Below, one piece after another: positions 3 to 19,334 of a stretch of DNA of 32,000 bases. The translations under genes were made by a program, and so were the position numbers. The DNA comes from an uncultured archaeon. GTDB taxonomy: Archaea; Asgardarchaeota; Thorarchaeia; Thorarchaeales; Thorarchaeaceae. The notes below the pieces were generated by a model. The model had not been told where the DNA came from, did no database searches, and worked only from the letters and a program-made list of their open reading frames with translations. Position 1 is the first letter of the stretch. Every line of letters begins with the position of its first letter. Location of the stretch: NCBI GenBank assembly GCA_964648855.1, contig CAZYLT010000004.1, forward strand, positions 1 through 32,000. Reading direction: 5' to 3'.

Positions 3-3000
3 CCGGGAAACAGTACTTATCCTGACTTCAGGGTACGGCATCCGACCCTCCCCGAGCTAGACCTCATCGACATGCTCAGGGCTCATGTGGTGGAGCTGGT
101 CAGGCAATGCTTCGTCCACAATGTACCACGTAAGGAGTCGCATCGCTACATCCGTCTGTTGATACACAAGCTTGCTCCCTTTGTCGAGTGGAAGTACACC
201 GAGGAGCAACGGGGGCGGAAGGACTTTTGGCCCGATGCGGACCGAGAACTCAAGGACATCGTCACAGAGATACAGGCAATCTATGGACGGCGGATCGGCA
301 GGACGCCACGCCTGACACAGCAACTGGATGGTGTTCCCTCAAACGTGACAGTGAAGGTCTTCCAAGGCCAAACAACTGTAGCAGAGAAGCGCGACAAGTC
401 TGCAGAGATGAAGAAGACTGTTGCAGCCCTGAGAGCGCAAATCAAGAAGGGAAACATCACCGACCAAGATGCGCAGGTGTTTGTGGATGAGTTGACCCAA
501 AGAGCAGTACTGGAAGGCAACCGCTGGCACCGTTTTCTAGCCAACGGATTCTACCAACCCAACTCTCTGAGAGAGGTGGTATTCCATGGCGACAAGCATC
601 AGCGGGCATTGAGTGACATCCTGATCGCATCTGAAGTTCCAGTCCGTACAACTCTGGGTTCAGGTAAGGCAGACATTGTCGTCTTTCTCCGCCGGATGTT
701 GAATGATGAACCCCTCTGGATCCCCATCATGGTGCTGGACATCAAGACCAAGACTGCCATGGACTGGGCCCCTTTCAGCAAGCGACCACGCACCGAGAAC
801 GCGAATGCAAGAGTTCTAGTAACTGATATCTCCAAGCGTCCCCTGACCAAGAGGGAATGGACAGCGGCCATGAGAGGCGCCCTGCAGAAGACAAACCGAC
901 AACAGTTGAAGTACTACTCGGAGGGCATCCGTGCAGAACTACAGAGTATACTGAGTCATCCCGAGCTTGTGCCAAAGAAACTCTGGCAAGGGCTCATCAC
1001 AGTGGACACAAGTCAGAAGTATGACGAGATGACTGGGATGATCGAGTGGCTTGTCAGAGAGACCATTCAGGACTTGCGGAAGACACAGCAACCGGCACAG
1101 AGCCCAACCCTGTATCAGCCTGCAGGTGCAACATCAAAGAATGCTATTCCAAAGATTGCCCTTGTATTGGATAAACAACAGAACCCTTTGAAGCTTCTCG
1201 AGGATGGCTCACCTCTTCCCGAGCTAGTTCTAGAGGACCCATTTACCGAGCGTCAGAAGAACGACCGCTTCCTCACCCTCTACCTCACTGTTGCATCCCC
1301 TGTGTCATCGGGCGAGTCTGCAGCACATGTGGCACGGAACTGGCATCTGTTGCAGTATCTACAGGAGCTGGTTGATACCAGAGAGAGACCGAAGGTGATC
1401 TGGCTTGATTTATTGGGAGAGTATCCCACCATTGACTTGGCTCTATCACGCCTTCGAGTCACTGGCGCTCTCAGTCCTGATGGATTGGACCCAAGACAGA
1501 TGACTCAAATTCGAAACTTAGTCAGGAGCTTTAACTTTGTTGACCTGAGTGAGGAGATGGCAGGTCTCTTGGAGGGGACGGCATCAAAAGCTCTGGAACA
1601 GATAGAGAGAGATGTTCGAGGAGCCGTGGCTGAACAGGGAGATTGTCTGGTCATTGTGGTGGATGGCTGGCCAAGAGTGCGCGACTTGATGCCACCGCAT
1701 CGCAACCATCTCTTGAAAGTGCTTGAGAGAAGACTACTGGATTGGGTGCCACAGAGGAACTGTGAGGTCATCTGGCTGGATCGCCCTGTTCCACTACCAA
1801 CGACATCGTCTGTGTACCAGATGCACGAAGTGACACCCCTTCCCTATGACTCAGCCAGAAGGGAGGAGTTAGACACTATCATCTGGAACAAGCCCACATG
1901 CCCTCGGTTTGCAGGTTGGAGGGCGCCCATGCTGGAGTATCTTCGAGTGATCGAGGTTGACTTGCCAATATCCTCTGGTCCAAGCCAGGAACTCTTCGTG
2001 GTCCCACATCTTCATGGGTGGGGACGGAGATTCAGGGCTGACACACAGGACGACAGACGGCTCAGAGAAGAGGATGTCTGGGAATTGGTTCAGGGCCCCC
2101 GTTACGCAAGAGGACACGCTATGACAGATTCCTATGAATATAGCCTCTATGATGATGAGCTGAAGAATGACCTGCTACTTGAGGCACGGTGCCTCTCGCC
2201 ATCACTACTACGCCCACAGAATGCAAAGGACAAAGAAGGACAGGAGGTACTGAGAACGGATTTGTCATCTGACGATATTAAATTGCATCGTACGCAGTTA
2301 CCAAAGAGCACCAAGAAAACAACCATTCTTGACAGGGTGCGTTTTCAACCAGGAGATGACCCCCCAAGAAGAAACCGATGGAGTGATGACCCTAATAGGG
2401 GATACTCCTTGGCGAAAGACATAACCAGAGCTAAGGTTCATCGTGAGGAGTCCGAACCCCCTGTGAATCCACGACGTACAGTTCGCCCTCCACTCATTGG
2501 TTCCGCATCTGCAGAGATTGACACCAGTAAAACGAGACTGAGCGAGATATCCCGGATCAAGGAGGCATGTCGGGTCGTCTTTGATGTAGTTGACGAACTA
2601 GATGCGGATTACTGGATGTTCATGAAGAGGGTGATGGACCGATGTTCGCATGCGCTTGATGCCCCGGAAGATCACGACAATCATGCGGTCTTAAAGGAGG
2701 TACGCGATGAACTGTCTTCCAGAAAGGAGTCAAGGGGGCTTTGGTGGGCTCTCCGCAACCTTCGTAAAGAAACCTTCGTCAGTGGGGGACTTCCATTGAC
2801 TGTGCAGAAGTTCCTAAGTGAGGCCTTGAAATCCCAGCTGGATCTATGGGAACTCTATGGTAATGATATCTTCATTCTGTTGCTGGGTCTTGAGTGGACC
2901 GGACATGATCTTCAAGCGGTCCATGTACAGACACTATGGAGGGCGTACGCGGAGTGGCAGTATGTCCACCTTGGACTGAAGCCAAGGGCACAACCAGACT

Positions 3001-3101
3001 ACATGGCGGAGCTGTTCTATGATGCGGATGCAATATTTTTGGATATGAGTGAACGGGCATCTCAATTGACAAACATCTTGCTACCGGAGAGAGTGGTCTA
3101 G
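3..3101 (+). CDS. Large protein (5'-partial): PD-(D/E)XK nuclease-like domain followed by a degenerate RecA/RadB-like P-loop domain; in frame with the next ORF across a single TAG
   Basis: Frame is open from window position 3 to the ATG at 72, so the true start may lie outside the window. Nuclease-like motifs: SEVPV, ADIVV, LDIKT, QLKYY. ATPase-fold-like motifs: ASPVSSGES, VIWLDLLGE, LVIVVDGW. Confidence 0.7.
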   Translation, partial: PGNSTYPDFRVRHPTLPELDLIDMLRAHVVELVRQCFVHNVPRKESHRYIRLLIHKLAPFVEWKYTEEQRGRKDFWPDADRELKDIVTEIQAIYGRRIGRTPRLTQQLDGVPSNVTVKVFQGQTTVAEKRDKSAEMKKTVAALRAQIKKGNITDQDAQVFVDELTQRAVLEGNRWHRFLANGFYQPNSLREVVFHGDKHQRALSDILIASEVPVRTTLGSGKADIVVFLRRMLNDEPLWIPIMVLDIKTKTAMDWAPFSKRPRTENANARVLVTDISKRPLTKREWTAAMRGALQKTNRQQLKYYSEGIRAELQSILSHPELVPKKLWQGLITVDTSQKYDEMTGMIEWLVRETIQDLRKTQQPAQSPTLYQPAGATSKNAIPKIALVLDKQQNPLKLLEDGSPLPELVLEDPFTERQKNDRFLTLYLTVASPVSSGESAAHVARNWHLLQYLQELVDTRERPKVIWLDLLGEYPTIDLALSRLRVTGALSPDGLDPRQMTQIRNLVRSFNFVDLSEEMAGLLEGTASKALEQIERDVRGAVAEQGDCLVIVVDGWPRVRDLMPPHRNHLLKVLERRLLDWVPQRNCEVIWLDRPVPLPTTSSVYQMHEVTPLPYDSARREELDTIIWNKPTCPRFAGWRAPMLEYLRVIEVDLPISSGPSQELFVVPHLHGWGRRFRADTQDDRRLREEDVWELVQGPRYARGHAMTDSYEYSLYDDELKNDLLLEARCLSPSLLRPQNAKDKEGQEVLRTDLSSDDIKLHRTQLPKSTKKTTILDRVRFQPGDDPPRRNRWSDDPNRGYSLAKDITRAKVHREESEPPVNPRRTVRPPLIGSASAEIDTSKTRLSEISRIKEACRVVFDVVDELDADYWMFMKRVMDRCSHALDAPEDHDNHAVLKEVRDELSSRKESRGLWWALRNLRKETFVSGGLPLTVQKFLSEALKSQLDLWELYGNDIFILLLGLEWTGHDLQAVHVQTLWRAYAEWQYVHLGLKPRAQPDYMAELFYDADAIFLDMSERASQLTNILLPERVV

Positions 3102-3119
3102 AAGCAAAGATCAGGTCTT

Positions 3120-4259
3120 TTGATGAGCACTGAGGGAAAGAAGGACTGGCTGGTGGTGCAGGAGGAGCTGGGAAGCAATCAGATGCTCATTGCGGTCACG
3201 GAGGAGTTAGAGGGGGAACCTCTTCAGCAGCGATTCTATGACTGCATGCGCAATCCCACTGAGTTTTCATCATCATGGAGTGGTGTTGACCACATCTGGG
3301 ACACTCAGCTCTTTATTCTGACCAGAGTGCAGGACAAGGACATCCTGTGGACATACCACTCTGATGAATATGAGATGGGGTACTGGTGGCCTGAAGGAGT
3401 CTTCACGTATGGGGAACCACCCAAGGACCAACTGGGACCGGTTCGATGGTTCAAGCTTAGGTCGATACCAAGTGAACTAAGGGACGAGTTACAAGAGCTG
3501 GACCTTGTTCCTGATGCGGACGAACTCATGGGATTTGTAGAAGAGAGCATGCAGTCGCTTATGGAAATGGTCGAGGGGGTCATCAACGTCAAGTGTTTGG
3601 CCACCATCGATGAAGAAGAAGGCTGTTATGTGCTGGAGCTCCATAAGAACATAAACAAGTCTGACTCAGAGCGAGGGAGACCACTCAAGAGGGTCACAAT
3701 GAAAAAGACTTTAGACGTCATCAGACAGCTCAGGTCGCCAGGGATTACCGGAGAGCCGTTGGATGGAGAATACTGGTGGGACCACCGAAGTGATGTCCTT
3801 TATGATGAGGTTGAGGTGGCCACGGGGGTACTCTCTTTGAGTTTCCTGAAACCCTTTGTCCTCAGAAACAGATGGTGGTCCGAGTTTCTAAGAGGTATTC
3901 CTCTTCCTGATATGGCGACGGACCTGCTTAGCACGAAACAGGGACCTGCGATATCTATAGTAGCAGATCCGGACTTGGAACGAATGAAGAGTGCCAGGAG
4001 TCGGTACTGGAATATCTTGTTCCTTGGAGATGAGCAGAGTTACCTGATGTGGTCTCTGTCAAAATTAGACCTGAATATCATCGAGGCGGCTCAGTTCTTT
4101 GAGGGGAGGCAGTTCGTTGATATGTCCACAGGGATACGGCATCCAACCAAGGTAGCTGTCAACAGACTCAAGGACGTCAATCTTCCCACGGAGACTCTCA
4201 AATATCGGCGACTTGCAAAATGGCTACAACTCAGGGGTTATGCCGCAAAGTGGAGCTGA
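3120..4259 (+). CDS. Acidic hypothetical protein, probably the C-terminal part of the upstream large protein
   Basis: 379-aa ORF in the same frame as 72..3101; only TAG plus 6 sense codons (KQRSGL) separate them; no clear SD before the TTG/ATG. Confidence 0.65.
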   Translation: MMSTEGKKDWLVVQEELGSNQMLIAVTEELEGEPLQQRFYDCMRNPTEFSSSWSGVDHIWDTQLFILTRVQDKDILWTYHSDEYEMGYWWPEGVFTYGEPPKDQLGPVRWFKLRSIPSELRDELQELDLVPDADELMGFVEESMQSLMEMVEGVINVKCLATIDEEEGCYVLELHKNINKSDSERGRPLKRVTMKKTLDVIRQLRSPGITGEPLDGEYWWDHRSDVLYDEVEVATGVLSLSFLKPFVLRNRWWSEFLRGIPLPDMATDLLSTKQGPAISIVADPDLERMKSARSRYWNILFLGDEQSYLMWSLSKLDLNIIEAAQFFEGRQFVDMSTGIRHPTKVAVNRLKDVNLPTETLKYRRLAKWLQLRGYAAKWS

Positions 4260-4292
4260 TTTTATAGGCACTCATTCCTCTGGAATATCATT

Positions 4293-4562
4293 GTGGACCC
4301 CGATGCCAACGCAGACGATGCGCCCCGGGAAATCAAGCGACTGGTTAGATTCTATGTAATCTTGTTCTACATGGGCATTGCAGTACTCTTCGGTGTACCC
4401 TTCGCACCATAACTGCCGATACTGTTTCCTATCATTCCAAGTGGAGAGGTTACGTGGACCTTAGACCTTCCGTCCTTTTTCCTGGGGTCGGTTTTTGTAA
4501 TGTCACCAGCAGCGCTCATTGCTGTGGAGATCCATCTGAGATTGAATGAGGTTACCTCCTGA
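4293..4562 (+). pseudogene. Small two-TM membrane protein interrupted by an in-frame TAA (4410-4412)
   Basis: Manual translation: VDPDANADDAPREIKRLVRFYVILFYMGIAVLFGVPFAP*LPILFPIIPSGEVTWTLDLPSFFLGSVFVMSPAALIAVEIHLRLNEVTS*. Hydrophobic segments lie on both sides of the stop. Confidence 0.5.
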
Positions 4563-4761
4563 ATTGAATGAATCCTCTCTTTGGAGATGTCAGTCGGCCC
4601 TCATCGATCATCTTCTTCACAGTTGATTTTGCGAGTTTCTTGGGCATATCTTGAAAGACTGCGAGACTAATAACCCTCTTCTTTCTTACCGGTTCCTGTT
4701 CAGTAACCTGAAGGCCCTGGAGAATATTCAGAATGAATTTGTCAGCTGTACCGGACCAACG

Positions 4762-5415
4762 TTACATCAAGTTGAACGGTTGCATCGGGATGAGTTCTTG
4801 GGGACTGGGAAGGCCGATGAGGGCAAACTTCACCATCATTTTACTAACATCTATCCCCTCCTCAGTAGGCTCAGACCCCGCGACAAGCCCCTCAGCGACT
4901 CTTCGAGCGGTCTCCGCCTTTCTGTATAGCCCCGCCATCAATAGGCATCTCATAATTCCTCTCCAGCCCTCCACATCCTCGGAGTCTCCCCGGATGATTG
5001 TTGAATACACCATATAGGATTTGTCAAAGACAAATTGGTGAAACCACGCCTTTCCCTTAAGGTGCAGATACTCCAAGTTCTCGGGCACCTCTTCCGTGAA
5101 ATACTCCTTAGGGAGCCTTCCTCCGTACTCCTTCGCCATTTCTTCAAAATGATCATCTACAAGTTCAATCGCCTTGTTGTAGAAGTCGTTTGCCTGAAAG
5201 TACAGTGATTGGGCGAGGTTGAAGTATGCATTCGGATATTCGTGTTTTCTGACAGCCTCCCTGAAACGCATCTCGGCAGCATATGAATCTCCCAACTTTG
5301 CCAGCTCAACCCCCTCAAAGAAAGGACGGAAGACCTCGTCAAAATCCAGGAATATCTCCGCTAGGTCTGGATTCTTCCTCCACTCTTCATATCCATCTCT
5401 GTCATCTTCTGCCAT
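4762..5415 (-). CDS. Tetratricopeptide-repeat-like protein
   Basis: TPR-like helices AAEMRFREAVRKHEYPNAYFNLAQSLY and VEGWRGIMRCLLMAGLYRKAE; ATG at 5415 preceded by GAGGGA (ORF track starts at 5472). Confidence 0.7.
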   Translation of the reverse strand: MAEDDRDGYEEWRKNPDLAEIFLDFDEVFRPFFEGVELAKLGDSYAAEMRFREAVRKHEYPNAYFNLAQSLYFQANDFYNKAIELVDDHFEEMAKEYGGRLPKEYFTEEVPENLEYLHLKGKAWFHQFVFDKSYMVYSTIIRGDSEDVEGWRGIMRCLLMAGLYRKAETARRVAEGLVAGSEPTEEGIDVSKMMVKFALIGLPSPQELIPMQPFNLM

Positions 5416-5610
5416 TTTTATTCCCTCAATATATCCTGAATCTCCCTCAAATTCTGTGCCACACGCTTCCACTTATTGGTGATCACAAGATAGGTCCGCG
5501 GACGGGCGCCTTTCTCTGTTTCTTTTTGACTTAGTCTCTGTTTCCCGAGATTCTCTCTAACTTCCATGATGGAATCAAGGCTGATTTCTGCTTTCTAGTT
5601 ACACAAGATG

Positions 5611-5647
5611 AAATAAAAAAAAAGCGAGAAACATATGCTTCTCGCTT
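5611..5647 (-). terminator. Hairpin plus U-tract terminator after the secreted-protein gene
   Basis: Minus strand reads AAGCGAGAAG-CATATG-TTTCTCGC followed by T9, directly after the stop at 5653. Confidence 0.75.
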
Positions 5648-5652
5648 ATTGA

Positions 5653-6345
5653 TTATCTAAAAAACCTCCAGGAAATTGAGTGTGTGTCCCAGTCTGCATC
5701 GCCCTGTTGTTGGGTGGTCTTATAAAAGTCCGAATTCATGTATAGTCCACAACGTACCCATACTCCTACGTAATACCAGTTGGATGTTGAGAACTCATAG
5801 TAGTCTTCATAGTCGGTACCGTCGTAAAGCTCCTTATATGCAGTTGTTGAATCCCAATCTTGGTTATCCTTATAGCCCCATGAAACGCTATCACCATCGG
5901 TGTAAGAACTCCATCCTCGTCTTACTGGAGGATTCTGTCCCATATCAACCACCACATACTGAACCGTCCAACTTGCAGAAGCACCAAATGCAGCACTAAT
6001 TGCATATTGGAAATCGGCATCAATGCTTAGTTCCAGATATTTGTACGTACTGTCAGCAGGTTTGACCTTAATAAGACAGTAGAAGTCTACATACTGGGCA
6101 AGTCCCATATCCATATGGCCATGGATATCAAGATCTCCCTTATACTCATCGACATCAACGGTGGTCCAGATTGTGGAGCTATATCCACTTACAACAAAAG
6201 CAACCATTTTGGAATTTCCCGAGTATATTGTTCCTGTGCGCGCCTGAGTTCCTGGAGGGTCATGTAACGCCTCTACAGGATTCAGCAATCCGAGCATCAA
6301 AACAAGGATGCCCATAGCTAGCGCTATTCGCATTCTTTTTTTCAT
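5653..6345 (-). CDS. Secreted/surface protein, Tyr/Asp/Ser-rich, likely beta-sandwich
   Basis: Classical signal peptide MKKRMRIALAMGILVLMLGLLNPVEA; GAGGTGGGGGGA upstream. Confidence 0.8.
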   Translation of the reverse strand: MKKRMRIALAMGILVLMLGLLNPVEALHDPPGTQARTGTIYSGNSKMVAFVVSGYSSTIWTTVDVDEYKGDLDIHGHMDMGLAQYVDFYCLIKVKPADSTYKYLELSIDADFQYAISAAFGASASWTVQYVVVDMGQNPPVRRGWSSYTDGDSVSWGYKDNQDWDSTTAYKELYDGTDYEDYYEFSTSNWYYVGVWVRCGLYMNSDFYKTTQQQGDADWDTHSISWRFFR

Positions 6346-6357
6346 GTTATTATCCCC

Positions 6358-6408
6358 CCACCTCGCGTGTGAGCGTCCTCAATTCGCCCCTTCTTCCACA
6401 CGAGATGG
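6358..6408 (-). promoter_or_regulatory. Structured 5' leader overlapping the SD of the secreted-protein gene
   Basis: CCATCTCG pairs with CGAGGTGG, TGTG with CACA, and GGCG with CGCT; the element is GC-rich inside an AT-rich intergenic region. Confidence 0.45.
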
Positions 6409-6682
6409 CACAGATTATATTAGCTCTATCCTATTTATTTCTTCTTAACTATTTAGCAAACAAAAATTAAAGTTATGCGCCATTTTAATAGTTTAATCAC
6501 TTCAACCCGCATAATAATACTAAATTAGTGTTCTAATGAAATCAAATCTTAATATACCTGCCAACATAATCTTTTCTGCAAATATACTTCAATCTATTAA
6601 CCTCTGCAAGCTGTCCAATATCCGCTCAAATGACCAAAGCTATATAAACAAACGCAAAACAGCTGAACGAGAGGGTGTATTC

Positions 6683-7816
6683 GTGAGAGAGTACTATACC
6701 GTGCTTCTACTTTTTCTAGTCTTCTTGGTCTTAATTCCCAATGCTAGCGCGAAATGTCAAGACCTGCAATGGGGTGTGGAAGAAGGATATACCAAACGTT
6801 ACGACATCATCGAACGACATTGGGGCGAAGAAACGGGTACGCTGATGATGATTCTAACCATCAAGGGATTACCTAGCTTTTCAAATGAAATAGTAAATTG
6901 GAGTCAGATCCCTTCTCCAGAGATCAGCATCGAATTAGAGAATGGGACAGAGCTAACAAGTTGGAGAGGCTTGTTTCCCGCTCTCCCGACATTTGTGCTT
7001 CCCACCGGAAATTGGAGTTTGATCACTGAACTTGCAGAAGCTAATTCGTCAGATTGGGAAGTTGACTATGATTCGGGTCAAGACTTCTGGCAATTGAATA
7101 TCGAATCCAATGAAACCAACAGCGATTGGCGTGCCAGCATCGACTACTCCCAAAGTGAGGGCATCTTGTGGAATTACCATTGGAGCCAGTATGCCCCGGG
7201 GTCTGGAGAAAATATTCAAGAAGTCATAATTAATGCGTATTACGAACGCGATTATACACCATTTTTCTTGTTCTTTGGCGGATATCTATCAATCTTTGCT
7301 GTCACAGCGATTGTACTCGTCCATAGAGTAAGGAAAGCAACACCTTATAGAATAGACCCGGCAGATGAAGAATACCCCAATGTGCAAGAGCGCATGGCAG
7401 TATTAACAGTTATTGCTTTATTCACACCATATGTGATTGTGCAAGGTGCATATGTGAATATATCGGCTGTCCTCTGGCAGGCTAACTTCAGTCTTACTTC
7501 CTTTTGGTTCTCTTTCGTTGACGCATTCACATTGGTCTTTCTCTCTCTCTTTACCTTTCCGCGGTACCTCTTTCTCTATCAGGTCTATCGTTTCTATACC
7601 GGAAAAACGACATTTAATCGTGCAATGTGGTGGGGGATATTCAGCATCATCTACTCTACAGCTCTCTTTTTGATATGGATGTTCAGTACGAAATCTGCTA
7701 TATTCATACATACCCCACTATTGATTCTCGCCGGCTACCTGCTGATGAGGAGAGAACCTAGGATTCAAAGTACAGACTGGTTAGAAGGCAAAGACGCCCA
7801 ATCCGGACAGGTATAA
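6683..7816 (+). CDS. Membrane protein: signal peptide, extracellular domain and about 5 C-terminal TM helices
   Basis: GTG at 6683 with GAGGGTG SD and TATATAAA about 40 nt upstream; hydrophobic N-terminus ending NASA; several TM segments after residue ~190. Confidence 0.8.
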   Translation: MREYYTVLLLFLVFLVLIPNASAKCQDLQWGVEEGYTKRYDIIERHWGEETGTLMMILTIKGLPSFSNEIVNWSQIPSPEISIELENGTELTSWRGLFPALPTFVLPTGNWSLITELAEANSSDWEVDYDSGQDFWQLNIESNETNSDWRASIDYSQSEGILWNYHWSQYAPGSGENIQEVIINAYYERDYTPFFLFFGGYLSIFAVTAIVLVHRVRKATPYRIDPADEEYPNVQERMAVLTVIALFTPYVIVQGAYVNISAVLWQANFSLTSFWFSFVDAFTLVFLSLFTFPRYLFLYQVYRFYTGKTTFNRAMWWGIFSIIYSTALFLIWMFSTKSAIFIHTPLLILAGYLLMRREPRIQSTDWLEGKDAQSGQV

Positions 7817-11234: not shown

Positions 11235-11311
11235 CGGGACGTAGCTCAATCTGGCAGAGCAATGGACTGTAGATCCATCGGTTGCCGGTTCAAATCCGGC
11301 CGTCCCGACCA
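11235..11311 (+). tRNA. tRNA-Tyr(GUA), intronless, CCA encoded
   Basis: Full cloverleaf: CGGGACG/CGTCCCG acceptor with archaeal C1-G72 and A73; ATGGA-CTGTAGA-TCCAT anticodon arm; TTCAAAT T-loop. Confidence 0.97.
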
Positions 11312-12108: not shown

Positions 12109-12885
12109 ATGAGTAAAGAACAGAAGATTCAGGAAGGGCGCAAATCTCTCAGAGCTGATAGCCGAATAGACTTTAGAACTAAGAACAAGTACAAACCAGA
12201 CGAGAAACAAAATATCTCCGCACCGCCTATGTCAAAGCCTTGTTTAGATTATCAAGATGAATTCGAGTTGGTACCGATTAAGGGCATCAAAACCAAACCG
12301 GCCTTATTAGCCGAAGTCATAGAGAATCGATCAACTCATAGAAGATACTCAGACGCGGCACTTACGTTGCAAGAGTTGTCCTTCTTATTGTGGTCGACTC
12401 AAGGGGTAAAAGAGGTGCAAGATAGAGGGGGCTGGTCCAAGCGAGTAGTACCTTCTGGTGGTGCAAGGCACCCATTTGAAACATATCTAATCGTTGATAG
12501 GGTAGATGGTCTGGATAAGGGCATATACCGATATCTTCCTTTTCAACACAGGCTATGCCGTGTTAAAGATGGTCTTCCTGACAGTGAAAGATTGATAGAA
12601 GCGATTAATGGTCAACGACAACTCTCCCGAGCTGCTGTGACATTTGTATGGGCCGCTATGCCATATAGAACTGAGTGGAGATATAGCATTGTAGCACACA
12701 AGGATATTGCAATAGAAGCCGGTCATATTTGCCAGAATCTGTATCTTTCCTGCGAGGCCATTGATGCTGGAACTTGTGCCATTGCTAACTACAACCAAGA
12801 AGTCATAGATTCGATAATCGGAGTAGATGGCGAGGACGAATTTACTGTGTACTTGGCTCCAGTAGGAAAAGCTCCTTCAGATTAG
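12109..12885 (+). CDS. SagB/ThcOx-family FMN-dependent dehydrogenase (nitroreductase fold)
   Basis: RSTHRRY, LSFLLW, VPSGGARHPFETY, WRY, EAGHICQNLYL motifs. Confidence 0.92.
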   Translation: MSKEQKIQEGRKSLRADSRIDFRTKNKYKPDEKQNISAPPMSKPCLDYQDEFELVPIKGIKTKPALLAEVIENRSTHRRYSDAALTLQELSFLLWSTQGVKEVQDRGGWSKRVVPSGGARHPFETYLIVDRVDGLDKGIYRYLPFQHRLCRVKDGLPDSERLIEAINGQRQLSRAAVTFVWAAMPYRTEWRYSIVAHKDIAIEAGHICQNLYLSCEAIDAGTCAIANYNQEVIDSIIGVDGEDEFTVYLAPVGKAPSD

Positions 12886-13683
12886 GGATGGAAGTAACTG
12901 AAGTTGAAATAGTACCGATATGGTGAGTAAGACTATCGATAGCATAATGACGGATGTGTCAGAAAAGCGCCATTGGGTTTTGCGTAAATAGCTCCGTTTT
13001 CGACCATATCCGAAAGCGCGCCCCTCCATTGAAAGCGCAAGGGTTTCTGCCCTCTGTAGTGCAGATACAATCAAGGGAAAGAAGGTGTAGCGTAAAGAAC
13101 GTTGCAACTTGCTCAATCCCCCTACTTCAATGGATATACCTCGTGATTTCTGAGCCATCCGTACAACTTCGTTTTCGATGTCAAAGAGTGGAATGAATCT
13201 CAGAGCGATTACGAGTGCAAAATTGTAACGATAAGGTATGCCAAATGAAGAGAGAGAGTGTGCCAAGAGTGTAGGGTCAGTGATTGCTACAAAAAACATG
13301 CTGGAAGTAACCAAAAGAAGAAATCTCAGAGCGAGTGATAGCCCCTTTTCTAGTCCAAAAGTAGTAACAGGAAAAGCCGGACCTAAATCTCCAATCCTGG
13401 GAAATAAATAAATCAAGACAATTCCATTCGGGGTAATCAGTACTTGAACTAGTAGTAGTATTACGGAGAATAAAAGGAGAAATCTTATTCTCCTGGAGGA
13501 GAACGTGAGATTAACTCGCAATATTTCAACTGCTAACAGAATAAAGCAGAGAATCAGCGCGCTCAGGACCAAGCTTGGATAGATGAGATTGCTAATCAGA
13601 ATTGCTAGAAGACAGAACAGATTGGCAAGAGGATTAGATGAATGTGAACTTGTCCCAATTTCATTCTTGGACGCTTCAAGCAT
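12877..13683 (-). CDS. ecfT: ECF transporter transmembrane component T
   Basis: TM helices plus ALRFIP, AQKSRG and MEGRAF (the two Arg motifs). Confidence 0.93.
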   Translation of the reverse strand: MLEASKNEIGTSSHSSNPLANLFCLLAILISNLIYPSLVLSALILCFILLAVEILRVNLTFSSRRIRFLLLFSVILLLVQVLITPNGIVLIYLFPRIGDLGPAFPVTTFGLEKGLSLALRFLLLVTSSMFFVAITDPTLLAHSLSSFGIPYRYNFALVIALRFIPLFDIENEVVRMAQKSRGISIEVGGLSKLQRSLRYTFFPLIVSALQRAETLALSMEGRAFGYGRKRSYLRKTQWRFSDTSVIMLSIVLLTISVLFQLQLLPSLI

Positions 13684-15139
13684 CGATTATACCCCCTATT
13701 TTACTATATTCTGGAAAACCTAGTGAGCTTAGTCGTTCAAGAACCTGTATTGGTGAGCCATCTAAGAGAATGCTTCCCTCATCCATGAATAGAATCCTAT
13801 CACAGTGATTTACGGCAAATCTTGAGTCATGTGTTATTAAAACAACCAGACCCCCGGCTTGTTTCGTGGCATTCATTTTCTTTAGAATGAGTTTCCTTCC
13901 GTCTGAGTCTTGACCAATGAATGGTTCATCTAAGAGTAGTATTAGCGGGCCATGTACGGTCGTCGAAGTAATATTCAGACGGCGTTTCTGGCCATAACTC
14001 AGCGAAAATGGATTTCTATCCTTAATGGAGAACAAATCAGCATCATGGAGTAGCTGCTTAGATTTAGATTGATCTTGCTTGAGGGTGCCGAGTACATCAA
14101 AGATGATATTCTGTTCATTCCAAACCGTCCGTTCAAAAATCTGATGGTTTGGGTTTTGGAAAACCATTGCAACATGTCGAATTCTATCACCACGAGAAAC
14201 TTTGTCAATCGGAATTTCTTGGAGGAACACATTGCCAGTCCCAGGTTTGAGTACTCCAGCTAGGAGTGAAATGAGGGTAGTTTTGCCTGAACCATTGTTG
14301 CCCATGAGTGCAACTATCTCCTCTTTGTGAAGGTCTACAGATAGATTGGATATTACGTCACCATTGCCATAGGAAAAGGACAACCCATCACAACTAAGGA
14401 GTGAAGACCATTCCTTTGGAAGTGTGTTTCGTCGATGAGAAAGAAATGAATCACCAGATGTTGCTCTGGGCAAATCAAAGCTGACTAGCTTCTTTTTTCT
14501 CAGCTCCAAATTTCTGTCAGCAATTGGTAAAAAATGCGTAATCTGATGTTCAATAACAAGTACACCAAGACCTTCTCGCTTCAAGTCAAGAAGAATTTGT
14601 CTAAGATTGGATATTCCCTGAGGATCTAAACTTGAACTAGGCTCATCTAGGATTATGTAGTCGGGTTGCATGGACAATATTGAGGCGATTGCAAGTCTTT
14701 GCTTCTCTCCACCGGATAGTGCGACAGTTGAACGATGTTTTAGATGCAGGATGCCAACTGATGAGAGGCTGTGGTTAACTCGATTGATTATTTCATTTTC
14801 CTCTTCACAAAGATTCTCCGGACCAAATGCTACTTCGTCAGCAACTTTGAGGGTACAGAGCTGGCTTTCTACATCTTGTTGAACGATTGAAACTTTTTTG
14901 GCTATTTGAGGGATAGTGAAATCTTCAACATTTTGGTCATCAATAAATACATCCCCGGAAAGATTGCCTTCGATTCGACGAGGTATATACCCTGCCAATA
15001 TTTTCCCCAAAGTAGACTTTCCTGAGCCTGTAGGGCCACCGAGGATAACAATTTCTCCCCTTGAGAGAGAGAAATCTAGCGACTCTAATATGGTGCTTTC
15101 CTCACCGTAGGAGAATGTAATATCACGTGCTTGTAGCAA
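13676..15139 (-). CDS. ECF transporter fused double ATPase (EcfA-EcfA')
   Basis: GPTGSGKS/LSGGEKQR/ILDEP and GNNGSGKT/LSYGQKRR/LLDEP; probable TTG start at 15139; overlaps the ecfT start. Confidence 0.93.
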   Translation of the reverse strand: MLQARDITFSYGEESTILESLDFSLSRGEIVILGGPTGSGKSTLGKILAGYIPRRIEGNLSGDVFIDDQNVEDFTIPQIAKKVSIVQQDVESQLCTLKVADEVAFGPENLCEEENEIINRVNHSLSSVGILHLKHRSTVALSGGEKQRLAIASILSMQPDYIILDEPSSSLDPQGISNLRQILLDLKREGLGVLVIEHQITHFLPIADRNLELRKKKLVSFDLPRATSGDSFLSHRRNTLPKEWSSLLSCDGLSFSYGNGDVISNLSVDLHKEEIVALMGNNGSGKTTLISLLAGVLKPGTGNVFLQEIPIDKVSRGDRIRHVAMVFQNPNHQIFERTVWNEQNIIFDVLGTLKQDQSKSKQLLHDADLFSIKDRNPFSLSYGQKRRLNITSTTVHGPLILLLDEPFIGQDSDGRKLILKKMNATKQAGGLVVLITHDSRFAVNHCDRILFMDEGSILLDGSPIQVLERLSSLGFPEYSKIGGIIDA

Positions 15140-15150
15140 TTTTATTCCCC

Positions 15151-16221
15151 TTAAGCAATCTGAAGTGTGGTCACTTGTTGAACCCATTGTGAACCGTCAT
15201 AGTTTGCCGCAATCAACCATAAGCCATTGTCACTCTTACTCAGTATGAATCTGTTGTCGTTCATGATTTCCTCTAAATCGAAAATGATGGTGTATCCGTC
15301 TTTTGCTCTCACCTTGAGAATAGTGGCCTCCGACTTTGGATTAGCATTGTTGATGATAGAACTCACTAGATAGCCCGTGTAGTTAGTGGGTGGTAGATGA
15401 GTATATGCACCCTGTAATTCCGCTTCGATGGTGACGGAACTCTCAGGGAATGTCGAATACTGAAACAAGTATGGATCCTTTACAAGACCAATTACTTCAC
15501 AGGTGTAGGGATCAGAGCCAAAATTAGCAACCTCCGTGACATAATAAGATGTGCCAAGAATGAGGAATACTACGAAAGCAAGAGCCGGGATGTTTCTTTT
15601 TACAATCATCCCATGGGTCTTTCTGGGAGTATCACTGTCCTGTTTTTGCTTTCTATCCGGCAATAAATCTGCATCGCCAAGAAAGTCTAAGGTTTCCCAA
15701 GCGAAATAACCTCCAAAAATGATTCCTGAACAGAATGCAAGAATCGTAATCACGCCAATGTAAATTATGGGGGCCCCAGAAAAATAAAAAAGCTGGAATA
15801 CGATTACACTGGATGCGGCGGATAGTCCTGCGCCAGTCCACCAGATTAGTCTCTTGCTCATGTCAGCCCCTTGTAGGTTATCTCCAAATATTGCAAATCC
15901 ATCCACTACAATACCTTGAAGCAAAGAAACTAGGACAATCACAATACCGTGGGTGCTCCCCGTAAAGAGCTCAACTATGCCTTTCAGTAGACCTCCGAAA
16001 GTACTGGCGCCCTTCTTTCTGATTATTGCTTGGATTAGCACCAACCAAAAGACATGTAGACCCGCCATGAATTGACCAGCACCAAATGGAACTCCCAATG
16101 TCAGATTCACCAGGTTACCCAAGTAACCAACGAATGTGCTAAGGGTTCCTCCGAGAGAGCTCAGAAGTGCAATGATGACGATTTCTTTGATTTCAGCATA
16201 ATGTAGATTCTCACTGCTCAC
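15151..16221 (-). CDS. ECF S component (YkoE-like) fused via an extra TM helix to a C-terminal molybdopterin-oxidoreductase-like soluble domain
   Basis: N-terminal ~180 aa with about 6 Gly-rich TMs (IIRKKGASTFGGLLKGIVEL, LLQGIVVD); C-terminal YTGYLVSSII...VRAKDGY...GSQWVQQVTTLQI. Confidence 0.8.
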   Translation of the reverse strand: MSSENLHYAEIKEIVIIALLSSLGGTLSTFVGYLGNLVNLTLGVPFGAGQFMAGLHVFWLVLIQAIIRKKGASTFGGLLKGIVELFTGSTHGIVIVLVSLLQGIVVDGFAIFGDNLQGADMSKRLIWWTGAGLSAASSVIVFQLFYFSGAPIIYIGVITILAFCSGIIFGGYFAWETLDFLGDADLLPDRKQKQDSDTPRKTHGMIVKRNIPALAFVVFLILGTSYYVTEVANFGSDPYTCEVIGLVKDPYLFQYSTFPESSVTIEAELQGAYTHLPPTNYTGYLVSSIINNANPKSEATILKVRAKDGYTIIFDLEEIMNDNRFILSKSDNGLWLIAANYDGSQWVQQVTTLQIA

Positions 16222-17822
16222 TGAGTTATCACCTCAATTCGTGCAACATATCGAATCCACCGGGCACCACCGGAGTAATAGATTTCGCAGCCCATGCCTA
16301 GAGAAGATGTGGCAATGCAGTCTTGATTGCTAAATGCTCCGTCAGGTGCAAGCATGGCTATTCGGAAACCTGTATCCCAATCGGGGACCTCCGTTCCATT
16401 GTACTCATAAGCCAAAATCATATCGCCTTGTAATTCTCGCCAAGTTTCATTTGGATACACATTTTGGTAGCTATAGTACTGGGAATAGCCATCATATGCT
16501 GTTACAAGGAGTGTGTTAGTCATCTCCATGTCACCAACCAAGCTAAGCAAGTCGGAAATTTTTACGCCCCTATAGACTCCTTGACCATCCCAATTCCCAA
16601 ATTGATTCTGAAACGATGAAAATGCTTCAACATATGGAAGCTGTTTCAAGTCATCTAACGAAAGAAGAACAGATGATTGAATGCCCTTTACCTCAATCAT
16701 ATTTCTTGGTACATTTGGCTCTGCAATGATTATGGGTTCTATTTGAAGTGAATCCTTCTGAAGTGTGGCGTGTACAAAATGGTGTATGCCGCCCATTTCC
16801 TCCGGTGCTGCCAATGACATGCCTGCACCGCCCGTAATCACATAGGTGACTCCATTGATTACCGTCTTGTTGAACATATGAATATGACCAGAAAAAACAT
16901 AGTCTACGCCCTCTTCTTCGAAGAGAGTCATGAGTCTAGCGGCTATTGCCTGTGACATCGTATGATTCTCGTTGGGTCGAGGATCAAAAGGAGGGATATG
17001 TGTAAAGACTATTTTCAGATCCTTGAGGGTGGTACTGAGGTCATCAAATAACCATTCAAATTCGCTCTCTGAAACCGTGTTTCTTGATGTGTTGAAAACT
17101 GTGAAATGAGCTGAATCTATTTCGAATGAATAAGTAGACGGACCAAACCAGTTTTCGTATCTCTGCCCGCCACTCTCACGTATGTCATGATTTCCTGCAG
17201 TTGTAAAAACCGGAATGGTGGAATTTTCAAGCGCCTCTGAAACTTGCATATATTGGTTATCTTGCCCAAACGGAGTAAGGTCACCACAGTGAAAGAGAAA
17301 ATCAGGTGAAAATGATTTCAAAGCTGTTAGTGTTTCTTGTATCCCACCTTGATATCCTTGGCTGTCCCCTAATGCCACAAACTCAAGAGCAGAGCCACTA
17401 TTGTCAGAAGTGGCATTAATCCAGACCGTGTGATGATTCGGGATGATCTCTACCCTCAATGTTAGGCTGTTTTCCATGGTTGAGATGATGTCATTGTTGG
17501 AGGAAATTGTTGTATTATCGGCAAGTAGATTCTGTATGAGTATTGAGTAAGAACCCGAAGAGAGAGAATCGGACCATAAGAGGGAGATATTCAGTGAGAA
17601 ACCAAGTGCACGAACGATAACAATCTCATCACTCTGGTCGCGAATATGTCCACCATATACATCAATAGCAGTAGGAGGAGTTGTCTGTTGTTGGGTGACC
17701 GAGTATACAATGAAAATACTCGCAGCTACGACAACTAGAAGTATCGCAGCTTTGACTTGTTGTGAGGATGTTATGTGAGATTCCACCTTTGTTTGATTGA
17801 TATGTTTGAGCGTGCATATCAC
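16218..17822 (-). CDS. Membrane-anchored calcineurin-like metallophosphoesterase with C-terminal molybdopterin-oxidoreductase-like domain
   Basis: N-terminal TM anchor; GDSQ, CGDL, GNHD, THIP, SGHIH motifs; C-terminal SLDDLKQLP...YRGVKISDLL...TAYDGYS...MILAYEYNG...WIRYVARIEV. Overlaps the next gene by ATGA; start may be the GTG at 17786. Confidence 0.85.
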   Translation of the reverse strand: MICTLKHINQTKVESHITSSQQVKAAILLVVVAASIFIVYSVTQQQTTPPTAIDVYGGHIRDQSDEIVIVRALGFSLNISLLWSDSLSSGSYSILIQNLLADNTTISSNNDIISTMENSLTLRVEIIPNHHTVWINATSDNSGSALEFVALGDSQGYQGGIQETLTALKSFSPDFLFHCGDLTPFGQDNQYMQVSEALENSTIPVFTTAGNHDIRESGGQRYENWFGPSTYSFEIDSAHFTVFNTSRNTVSESEFEWLFDDLSTTLKDLKIVFTHIPPFDPRPNENHTMSQAIAARLMTLFEEEGVDYVFSGHIHMFNKTVINGVTYVITGGAGMSLAAPEEMGGIHHFVHATLQKDSLQIEPIIIAEPNVPRNMIEVKGIQSSVLLSLDDLKQLPYVEAFSSFQNQFGNWDGQGVYRGVKISDLLSLVGDMEMTNTLLVTAYDGYSQYYSYQNVYPNETWRELQGDMILAYEYNGTEVPDWDTGFRIAMLAPDGAFSNQDCIATSSLGMGCEIYYSGGARWIRYVARIEVITQ

Positions 17823-17881
17823 TACGCAAACTGAATAAGAAGTTTCGGGAACATCAAGTTATGGTCTAGCTACCTAGTTTG

Positions 17882-18664
17882 CTATTGTGGGATGCCATTT
17901 GTTCTGATTTGATGCGAGAGACGTTTTAACTCGTCATCATTCCTCCAGATAGCAGTCTGCTGAAGGGCTTTAGCCACTGACTGTATGAAAGCAGTTTCCT
18001 GCTTCTTTGTCCGATTGAAACCACTGAGCAAGAGATACTTCTCGAAGAGTCTCCATGCTAGCTTGCGTTTTCTGATATCAAAAATTGGATTTGTATCAAG
18101 AAGACTTGCTGCTGCACCGCCAATATCAACTATCCACTCTCCGGATTGAACTTCTTCAAAGTCAACGCCATATATTGTAGAATTATCCTTGACAATGAAA
18201 TTTCGTAGTCTTGAATCCCCCTTGATGAGATTGTGGATGCTATGGAACCGGTGGTACCAAGATGCTAATTTGTCGATATCTTCAGTACTGTATGTTTCGT
18301 GTATTCTTTCAATGAGAGGGGGCCCAGGAATATATTCCATCAAAATTATCCTAGGAACTGTGGTAAGAATCCTTGGTACCGTGAGGCCATTTGCGATACT
18401 TTCTTCCAAAATCCTCTGTTCGATAGCGTATCCATCTTGGATAAAGAGCTTTGCAACGACATGAGAGAAAGTATCTTCCCCCACATCGACAATAAGATCA
18501 AGAGTGACATTCTTCTTGCTTTGTATCCTTGTTGCAGACTTAATTTTCATCTTAGGCCCATAGTATTCCAAGAGGAGTTCTTCGAAACTGGAAACCACCG
18601 TAGGTTCTAATCTTCTTCCATCTATGCCTGCAATAACAATGTCAAACTCCTGAAGGATGTTCAT
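17882..18664 (-). CDS. Protein-kinase-like phosphotransferase (APH/RIO/Bud32-like fold)
   Basis: VAK, helix-C Glu, VPRI, MEYIPG, KGDSRLRN catalytic loop, VDFE. Confidence 0.85.
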   Translation of the reverse strand: MNILQEFDIVIAGIDGRRLEPTVVSSFEELLLEYYGPKMKIKSATRIQSKKNVTLDLIVDVGEDTFSHVVAKLFIQDGYAIEQRILEESIANGLTVPRILTTVPRIILMEYIPGPPLIERIHETYSTEDIDKLASWYHRFHSIHNLIKGDSRLRNFIVKDNSTIYGVDFEEVQSGEWIVDIGGAAASLLDTNPIFDIRKRKLAWRLFEKYLLLSGFNRTKKQETAFIQSVAKALQQTAIWRNDDELKRLSHQIRTNGIPQ

Positions 18665-18755: not shown

Positions 18756-18974
18756 ATGACTGATAGAATATGCAATGTCGAAAAGAACAAGGAAAGATGC
18801 GGTTGTACTTATCCGGGATGTCCTCGAAAAGGGTATTGTTGTGATTGCCTGCAATACCACTGGAAACATCGGGAATTGCCGGGGTGTTTATTTCCGCCGG
18901 AGGCAGAAAAGACTTTCGATCGGTCTCTTGAGTACTTCTTGGAAGTCTGGAATGAAAAACTCGGTAAATCATAA
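18756..18974 (+). CDS. Small Cys-rich protein (DUF6485-like)
   Basis: CGCTYPGCPRKGYCCDCLQYH...LPGCLFP...DRS pattern. Confidence 0.85.
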   Translation: MTDRICNVEKNKERCGCTYPGCPRKGYCCDCLQYHWKHRELPGCLFPPEAEKTFDRSLEYFLEVWNEKLGKS

Positions 18975-18986
18975 GGGGTTATGAAG

Positions 18987-19096
18987 TGGCGGGCGCGCCA
19001 GGATTCGAACCTGGGATGCCCAGCTCCGAAGGCTGGTGCCTTATACGTACCTCCTGCAGAGTAGACTGCGAGGAGTCCATACTAGACTACGCGCCC
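18987..19096 (-). tRNA. tRNA-Arg(UCG) with a 32-nt non-canonical D-loop intron (19045-19076), CCA encoded
   Basis: Removing the insert gives a 78-nt cloverleaf (GGGCGCG/CGCGCCC; CCAGC-CTTCGGA-GCTGG). The junctions form a BHB: central helix GUAU/GUAC, bulges GGA and GUA. Confidence 0.95.
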
Positions 19097-19215
19097 TAGG
19101 TATGGAATCAAGGAACGGTTCTTAAGCACTTCTGTATTGACCACAGATTGCCTCTCATCGGGGTTGCCTTAAGGTTATAAAAGAAAACCAATGTGAGTAG
19201 AATCAAAAAAGAACC

Positions 19216-19334
19216 GCGGGAGTTGCCAAGACAGGCCAAAGGCGGCGGACTTAAGATCAGATGAAAAATGGGGTCATCAATGAGAGATCCGCTCTCGTAG
19301 GAGTCCGAGGGTTCAAATCCCTCCTCCCGCACCA
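19216..19334 (+). tRNA. tRNA-Leu(UAA) with a 31-nt intron at 37/38 (19256-19286), CCA encoded
   Basis: GCGGGAG/CTCCCGC acceptor, long variable arm, BHB helix CUUA/UGAG with AGA bulges. Confidence 0.95.

Follow-up and report, generated by a model that had tools for sequence, protein, structure and literature searches.

The window analysed here, a 32,000-nucleotide stretch of a Thorarchaeote contig (CAZYLT010000004.1; genome G000, 3.1 Mb, 94.6% complete), carries a cassette of five co-oriented open reading frames (ORFs), all on the minus strand, which we interpret below as an energy-coupling factor (ECF) importer that would let a cofactor-auxotrophic anaerobe scavenge the tungsten/molybdenum (W/Mo) pyranopterin cofactor. 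Its gene order is kinase, anchored metallophosphoesterase, YkoE-like S component, double ATPase and EcfT, mapped as follows:

17882..18664, minus strand: atypical, cytoplasmic kinase of protein-kinase-like fold (conserved catalytic residues, weak Bud32/RIO/APH matches)
16218..17822, minus strand: metallophosphoesterase with a C-terminal Cys-less SUOX/PruR-like domain (Pfam, transmembrane (TM) helix 25-43, structure model)
15151..16221, minus strand: ECF S component, YkoE (PF09819) family, with a SUOX/PruR-like tail (PF09819, model compared with 5EDL)
13676..15187, probable start TTG 15139, minus strand: fused double ECF ATPase, A-A' (TIGR04520/04521 at 307-314 bits, two ABC_tran domains)
12877..13683, minus strand: ECF T component, CbiQ/EcfT (PF02361, E 4.7e-28)

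A prediction made earlier from the letters of this DNA (the original prediction) had described five co-oriented genes, the last four tightly spaced and the kinase 59 bp upstream, and all five were found at these positions on the minus strand. Counted from the first possible starts, the intergenic gaps are +59, -4, -37 and -8 nt; an alternative ATPase start, TTG 15139, preceded by a Shine-Dalgarno-like GGGG, turns the overlap of 37 nt into an 11-nt gap and gives a 487-aa protein that fits the lengths of homologues (481-489 aa). The phosphoesterase start is possibly GTG 17786. The operon has its own T component and two ATPase domains and, in the predicted model, the S core has the six-helix ECF fold; by fold and gene content the transporter is a group I ECF system.

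The S component consists of a PF09819 core, a flexible linker (disordered at 191-200 in the model), a seventh TM helix (211-229) and a soluble domain at about 233-356. Among its homologues H56, W59, E84 and D308 are invariant, Y310 is kept in 151/152 and W346 in 140/152. Residues 8-203 of the model are closest to YkoE (5EDL; Z 20.8, E 1e-20), with Z 11-14 for ThiT, PanT, RibU and FolT. YkoE belongs to YkoEDC, the group I thiamine importer of B. subtilis (PMC5037267), with which the cassette shares the grouping of S component, fused A-A' and T in a single operon, a PF09819 core of the same fold, riboswitch control in bacteria and, as YkoF in some species, a soluble accessory protein for binding. 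This likeness favours a reading in which another pterin or vitamin is salvaged (neopterin phosphate, folate, methanopterin, flavin, or thiamine/hydroxymethylpyrimidine, the S component acting like YkoE and the kinase like ThiK), as do the retained E77 and, partly, Q95, which contact the aminopyrimidine ring in YkoE, and the preference of the pterin-binding protein PruR for small pterins (PMC11194511). We judge it very improbable: the YkoE thiamine contacts Y46, W49, E77, Q95 and D131 align to A/S, H, E, Q/A and F, three of the five being replaced, and the kept Glu and Gln are compatible with pterins because the aminopyrimidine ring is also part of these. Moreover, the phyletic pattern tracks moa genes, and the bacterial orthologues stand under a molybdenum cofactor (Moco) motif, not a THI box (both below). 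Further departures from YkoEDC are the seventh TM helix and SUOX-fold domain of the S component, and the additional phosphoesterase, kinase and tandem capture proteins.

Two of the five genes end in a common soluble domain behind TM anchors, as had been noticed from the sequence: TM 25-43 lies ahead of the phosphoesterase domains, and the extra TM 211-229 ahead of the soluble domain of the S component. Profiles and folds were needed to relate the two C-terminal domains, because direct comparison is too weak (pairwise BLASTP, E 0.013, barely matching); profile-profile alignment with hhalign indicates homology at 92.6% and E 4.7e-7. The sulfite-oxidase fold (SUOX/Oxidored_molyb) that had been expected for both is found in both models. 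The phosphoesterase tail (pLDDT 96) matches SoxC with Z 15.1 and PruR with Z 14.7, and also SorA and sulfite oxidase; for the S tail the values are 14.9 (SoxC) and 13.7 (PruR). The Mo-ligand Cys of the cofactor hairpin is absent from all 184 aligned domains (0/152 S domains, 0/32 phosphoesterase-type domains), across which a D-G-Y motif and a late Trp are nearly invariant. The phosphoesterase-domain profile found no PDB sequence, and its alignment to MsrP was not useful; the window's SUOX-like domain also weakly matches NF041762.

These domains are folded like the Moco-binding domain of the sulfite oxidase family (SoxC, SorA, MsrP/YedY; Foldseek E 4e-7, Z as high as 15), but they have no catalytic Cys and are not oxidoreductases, and the window proteins have neither a dimerisation nor a heme domain. 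PruR is an exported SUOX-fold protein without the Mo-ligand Cys that binds pterins via N102, Y104 and W160 (PMC11194511). The window's domains resemble it (7KP2, 7RKB, 7KOM) in their Cys-less, non-catalytic SUOX fold (Z 11-15), in probable export and perhaps in a D/N-x-Y and W that may be equivalent. PruR has a Trp at the Cys position, a shortened hairpin and signalling through DcpA; here, no PW motif is found at the Cys position, the hairpin is long in both models, no dcpA-type gene is among the conserved neighbours, which are the ECF genes, and the domains are membrane-anchored, often tandem and transporter-linked. By defining features, then, the cassette is neither a YkoE thiamine importer nor a sulfite-oxidase enzyme nor a PruR; it belongs to a known kind of transporter, with a cargo that is probably new.

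Elsewhere in this genome, on contig C3 (L001:7129-8679, minus strand), lies a stand-alone anchored protein with tandem Cys-less SUOX domains. It has orthologues within the operon in other genomes and relatives with up to about ten repeats, and is probably a capture protein of the importer system. As a separate observation, bacterial S-layer-type proteins fuse purple-acid-phosphatase and SUOX-like domains (L067:2753-8799), beside MotA/ExbB and DUF2149 genes.

The distribution of the importer was compared with that of cofactor-synthesis genes in 61 Asgard and 151 Thermoplasmata genomes (26 S-positive, 125 S-negative). Among the Asgard genomes, moaC is found in 0/28 of those with the S component, and the S component in 0/30 of those with moaC; the same split is repeated within three genera (g2, g7, g11), which argues against one inherited coincidence. 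Both moeA and tupA are absent in 27 of the 28 carriers, only G005 having the two, and AOR-family genes are present in 60/61 genomes, in both groups. WtpA is absent from both Asgard groups and uninformative. TupABC/WtpABC/ModABC together with moa-moe supply the same Mo/W enzymes and are under the same RNA motif in bacteria, but what these transporters bring in is the metal anion, to be used in de novo synthesis; with tupABC-moa the cassette is nearly mutually exclusive in Thorarchaeota. In Thermoplasmata, intact moaC occurs in 4/26 genomes with the S component vs 85/125 without it; in one carrier moaC is decayed, with five in-frame stops (G231:C4:48611-49027), and three single-contig chromosomes carry importer and AORs, with no moaC or moeA. 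The original prediction had named molybdopterin/tungstopterin as one cargo option and proposed to check co-occurrence with Mo/W enzymes or with missing moa/thi genes; this pattern strongly backs that option.

The window's own genome has 11 AOR-family genes, nine of them full length, and lacks tupAB, moaA, moaC, moaE, moaB and moeA. Searches of it by tblastn with same-family TupA, TupB, MoaE/C, MoaB and MoeA found nothing, and with MoaA only matches at 29% identity or less and no orthologue; true Tup/Moa/Moe orthologues are 53-72% identical, and flanking genes were found in this genome. A PF00994 match was rejected as MoaB/MogA, being CinA-like, and a 216-aa MobA-like protein scores far below the cut-off. 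There is no DMSO-reductase-family enzyme, so that a nucleotide-free form of the cofactor is needed.

These absences bear on the state of the cargo. The same importer might carry a metal-free precursor (molybdopterin (MPT), dephospho-MPT or cyclic pyranopterin monophosphate (cPMP)), with the metal added inside: the SUOX-like domains lack the metal-ligand Cys, PruR binds metal-free pterins (PMC11194511), and YkoE has only a small pocket (545 cubic angstrom). We regard this as unlikely, in view of the missing moeA and tupA in 27/28 Asgard carriers and of the further lack of moaE and moaB in this genome, which leaves neither cPMP maturation nor MPT loading by a known route.

In bacteria, the Moco RNA motif (RF01055) stands directly upstream and on the same strand at 18/20 Chloroflexota-type and 6 Bacillota loci, scoring 56-76 bits vs a gathering cut-off of 36; by a custom profile it lies within 450 nt in 52/64 loci, a count that is partly circular. 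At the 37 bacterial loci scanned it was the only such element, with no riboswitch for thiamine pyrophosphate (TPP), flavin mononucleotide (FMN), tetrahydrofolate (THF) or cobalamin. With no TPP riboswitch and three of the five YkoE thiamine contacts lost, the thiamine cargo that had been offered as the other option finds no support. No Moco motif was found in the window, in its genome or in 60 archaeal loci. The P3 stem is missing in 5/5 aligned motifs and, by spacing, in most others; motifs without P3 have been linked to the tungsten cofactor, direct binding not being shown in that study (PMC2408646). We consider the tungsten form the most likely cargo. Oxyanion transporters, too, are under control of the Moco motif (PMC2408646), and tupA is missing from carriers, two points that would fit an ECF system importing tungstate/molybdate in place of TupABC, with the pterin-like domains incidental. 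This we find extremely improbable: carriers have none of the pterin pathway and could make no use of the anion by itself, and the pterin-fold domains, phosphoesterase and kinase would be left unexplained. Three independent lines, the mutual exclusion in Asgard genomes, its repeat in Thermoplasmata and the bacterial Moco motif, thus support a W/Mo-pyranopterin cofactor as the predicted cargo.

The phosphoesterase comprises TM 25-43, Metallophos at 148-316 and Oxidored_molyb at 376-481 (E 1.4e-6, above cut-off), its SUOX/PruR-like domain spanning residues about 371-534. Of the calcineurin-like motifs (DxH, GD, GNH, H, GHxH) all are present save that the first reads DSQ, with Gln replacing His; D153, D181, N211-H212, H275 and H313-x-H315 are conserved in 25 orthologues, and the Pfam match is above cut-off. 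N-glycosylation sequons number 20.6 per 1000 aa vs 3-8.5 in cytoplasmic neighbours, a density that backs its probable placement as an N-anchored, extracellular protein; the 9.5 per 1000 aa of the S tail lends weak support to an outside location there. The kinase is assigned to the protein-kinase-like fold (Bud32/RIO/APH-like), every family match being below cut-offs, and its K72, E82, D150, N155 and D168 are invariant in 21 orthologues, so the catalytic residues are intact. No ThiK model is among its NCBIfam hits; its similarity to Bud32/RIO/APH/Kdo kinases is weak, and it is not nearer to ThiK than to these. It is a candidate (metal-)dephospho-pyranopterin kinase. It accompanies the S component in 27/28 Asgard and 24/26 Thermoplasmata genomes, and occurs in 3/33 and 5/125 of those without it; in two Lokiarchaeota-type genomes, which are cofactor makers, a homologue lies three genes ahead of the tup-moa operon.

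The five-gene order given above, starting with the kinase, is seen at 23 Thorarchaeota loci. In 6 of them (L040:11617-13596, minus strand, and five others, in two genera) a gene for a 660-aa Mo/W enzyme of the DMSO-reductase family is inserted after the kinase, which counts in favour of cofactor import. Three relatives without the cassette (G002, G004, G019) show the empty syntenic site, running from the DUF6485 gene to the downstream genes. The Thermoplasmata operon begins with a multi-domain capture gene, followed by phosphoesterase, S, A-A' and T, and in 41 loci it ends with the kinase gene in inverted orientation, still adjacent. Related operons occur in syntrophic Bacillota and other Asgard lineages. 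A Chloroflexota-type clade has an S component with two domains, a heme-motif SUOX protein and no kinase nearby, and the phosphoesterase position is held by an unrelated PF01663 phosphodiesterase (NPP-type, alkaline-phosphatase superfamily). That heme-motif protein, conserved and 305 aa long (L223:12802-13719, plus strand), has no Pfam match; it was rejected as a kinase substitute for its CxxCH motif and two SUOX-like repeats. The linkage of kinase and phosphoesterase to ECF genes in other genomes, on which the original prediction had staked itself, holds in Thorarchaeota, Thermoplasmata and some Bacillota.

Taken together, we put the probability that the cassette is an importer for scavenging the W/Mo pyranopterin cofactor at roughly 0.8, and hold it likely that the cofactor enters intact and metal-loaded, with capture domains at the surface and an enzyme pair that trims and re-phosphorylates it. 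We infer five steps, given in falling order of confidence. Anchored Cys-less SUOX domains of the phosphoesterase, S component and tandem protein would bind and shield, at the surface, cofactor that other cells have released. The cargo would carry its own metal, because there is no metal insertase and no tungstate pump (moeA, moaB and tupA are missing). The surface phosphoesterase would trim the cofactor, removing the nucleotide of the guanine or cytosine dinucleotide forms (MGD/MCD) and/or the terminal phosphate; the S core would import it, powered by ATP hydrolysis in A-A'-T; and the intracellular kinase would put the terminal phosphate back.

The full cycle of de- and re-phosphorylation is about an even bet. 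Import may be right while the phosphoesterase only strips the MGD/MCD nucleotide and the kinase serves in regulation or in the repair of dephospho-MPT, a scheme that overlaps the one above and concerns only the trimming and re-phosphorylation steps. It is a serious alternative, somewhat short of even odds, because the pairing of the two enzymes is loose and two cofactor makers have kinase homologues close to their tup-moa genes. An NPP-type phosphodiesterase is the replacement in the Chloroflexota-type clade, where the kinase is not nearby; kinase homologues also occur in operons without the phosphoesterase, the nearest sequence families of the kinase are RIO/Bud32 protein kinases, and this genome, without a DMSO-reductase-family enzyme, needs the nucleotide-free form. 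A part for the kinase in the uptake cycle is favoured in turn by the gain and loss of the kinase together with the cassette, by its adjacency even after inversion in the 41 Thermoplasmata loci, and by its Atlas neighbours, which are APH/Kdo small-molecule kinases.

Several points weigh against cofactor import as proposed here. Support for it is wholly comparative, and since related genomes are not independent of each other, significance is overstated by the counts. The D-G-Y and W of the SUOX-like domains were matched to N102/Y104/W160 of PruR by motif position, not by residue-level superposition, and their equivalence is putative. Free Moco is unstable (PMC7849362), and bis-pterin W centres would have to form without MoeA. 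Several operons lack the phosphoesterase, the kinase or both, so that the pairing is not strict. Two Asgard genomes (G037, G040; 95-96% complete) have AORs and lack moaC/moeA and also the S component, and may point to another route. In G005 the importer coexists with tupA, moaB and moeA, and moaC is kept in 15/18 Bacillota carriers; the system is therefore not restricted to auxotrophs, and the Bacillota case fits regulated salvage alongside synthesis. Separately, G040 (G037/G040 loci L238, L239, L240) has a SUOX-like gene surrounded by genes for ABC transporters, which may be a second route of uptake.

Salvage of the finished cofactor independent of biosynthetic genes has a parallel in dietary Moco uptake by C. 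elegans, which is eukaryotic, has no ECF link and whose machinery is not identified in that report (PMC7849362). Our literature search, which left most subscription papers outside, found no published account of an ECF or other prokaryotic importer of Moco or the W cofactor, in agreement with the original statement that no ECF system of such architecture was known to be characterised.

Some features around the cassette may be noted. Divergent from it is a DUF6485 gene:

18756..18974, plus strand: DUF6485 gene, 72 aa, 8 Cys (PF20095)

It is present at 21 Thorarchaeota cassette loci, 62-94% identical across Thorarchaeota, and lies beside the kinase even in G014, where both are separated from the ECF genes. 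Five cofactor-making genomes also have it; it was rejected as cassette-specific and marks the chromosomal site. GatD/GatE genes lie nearby and, taken with the names of close homologues, place the window in Thorarchaeota. Two intron-containing tRNA genes (18990-19097, minus strand; 19216-19331, plus strand), matched by Rfam and overlooked by ARAGORN, read by eye as tRNA-Arg(UCG), whose non-canonical intron sits close to the D arm, and tRNA-Leu(UAA); these and tRNA-Tyr (11235-11311) bracket the cassette. A SagB-like nitroreductase gene (12109-12885, plus strand) is convergent with the T gene, overlaps its end and is found close to the cassette at 6 loci. At 72-7816, five ORFs of 230-1009 aa have no Pfam match at E 1e-5; the first 5 kb of the window are 49-54% GC vs ~43% elsewhere, and the region was possibly acquired.

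A genome survey left unexplained about 310 prokaryotes that have molybdoenzymes and an incomplete cofactor pathway, naming only oxyanion importers (PMC6147048); the cassette supplies testable genes for cofactor uptake. If import is as proposed, the Mo/W cofactor would join the vitamins that are traded among microbes, and most sampled Thorarchaeota and many Thermoplasmata would be cofactor auxotrophs that, in anoxic sediments and digesters, rely on cross-feeding. Metabolic models of Thorarchaeota in which self-supply is taken for granted, or in which the S component counts as a thiamine or cobalt permease, would be corrected, and a protein that captures the labile cofactor would be a practical aid for tungstoenzyme expression.

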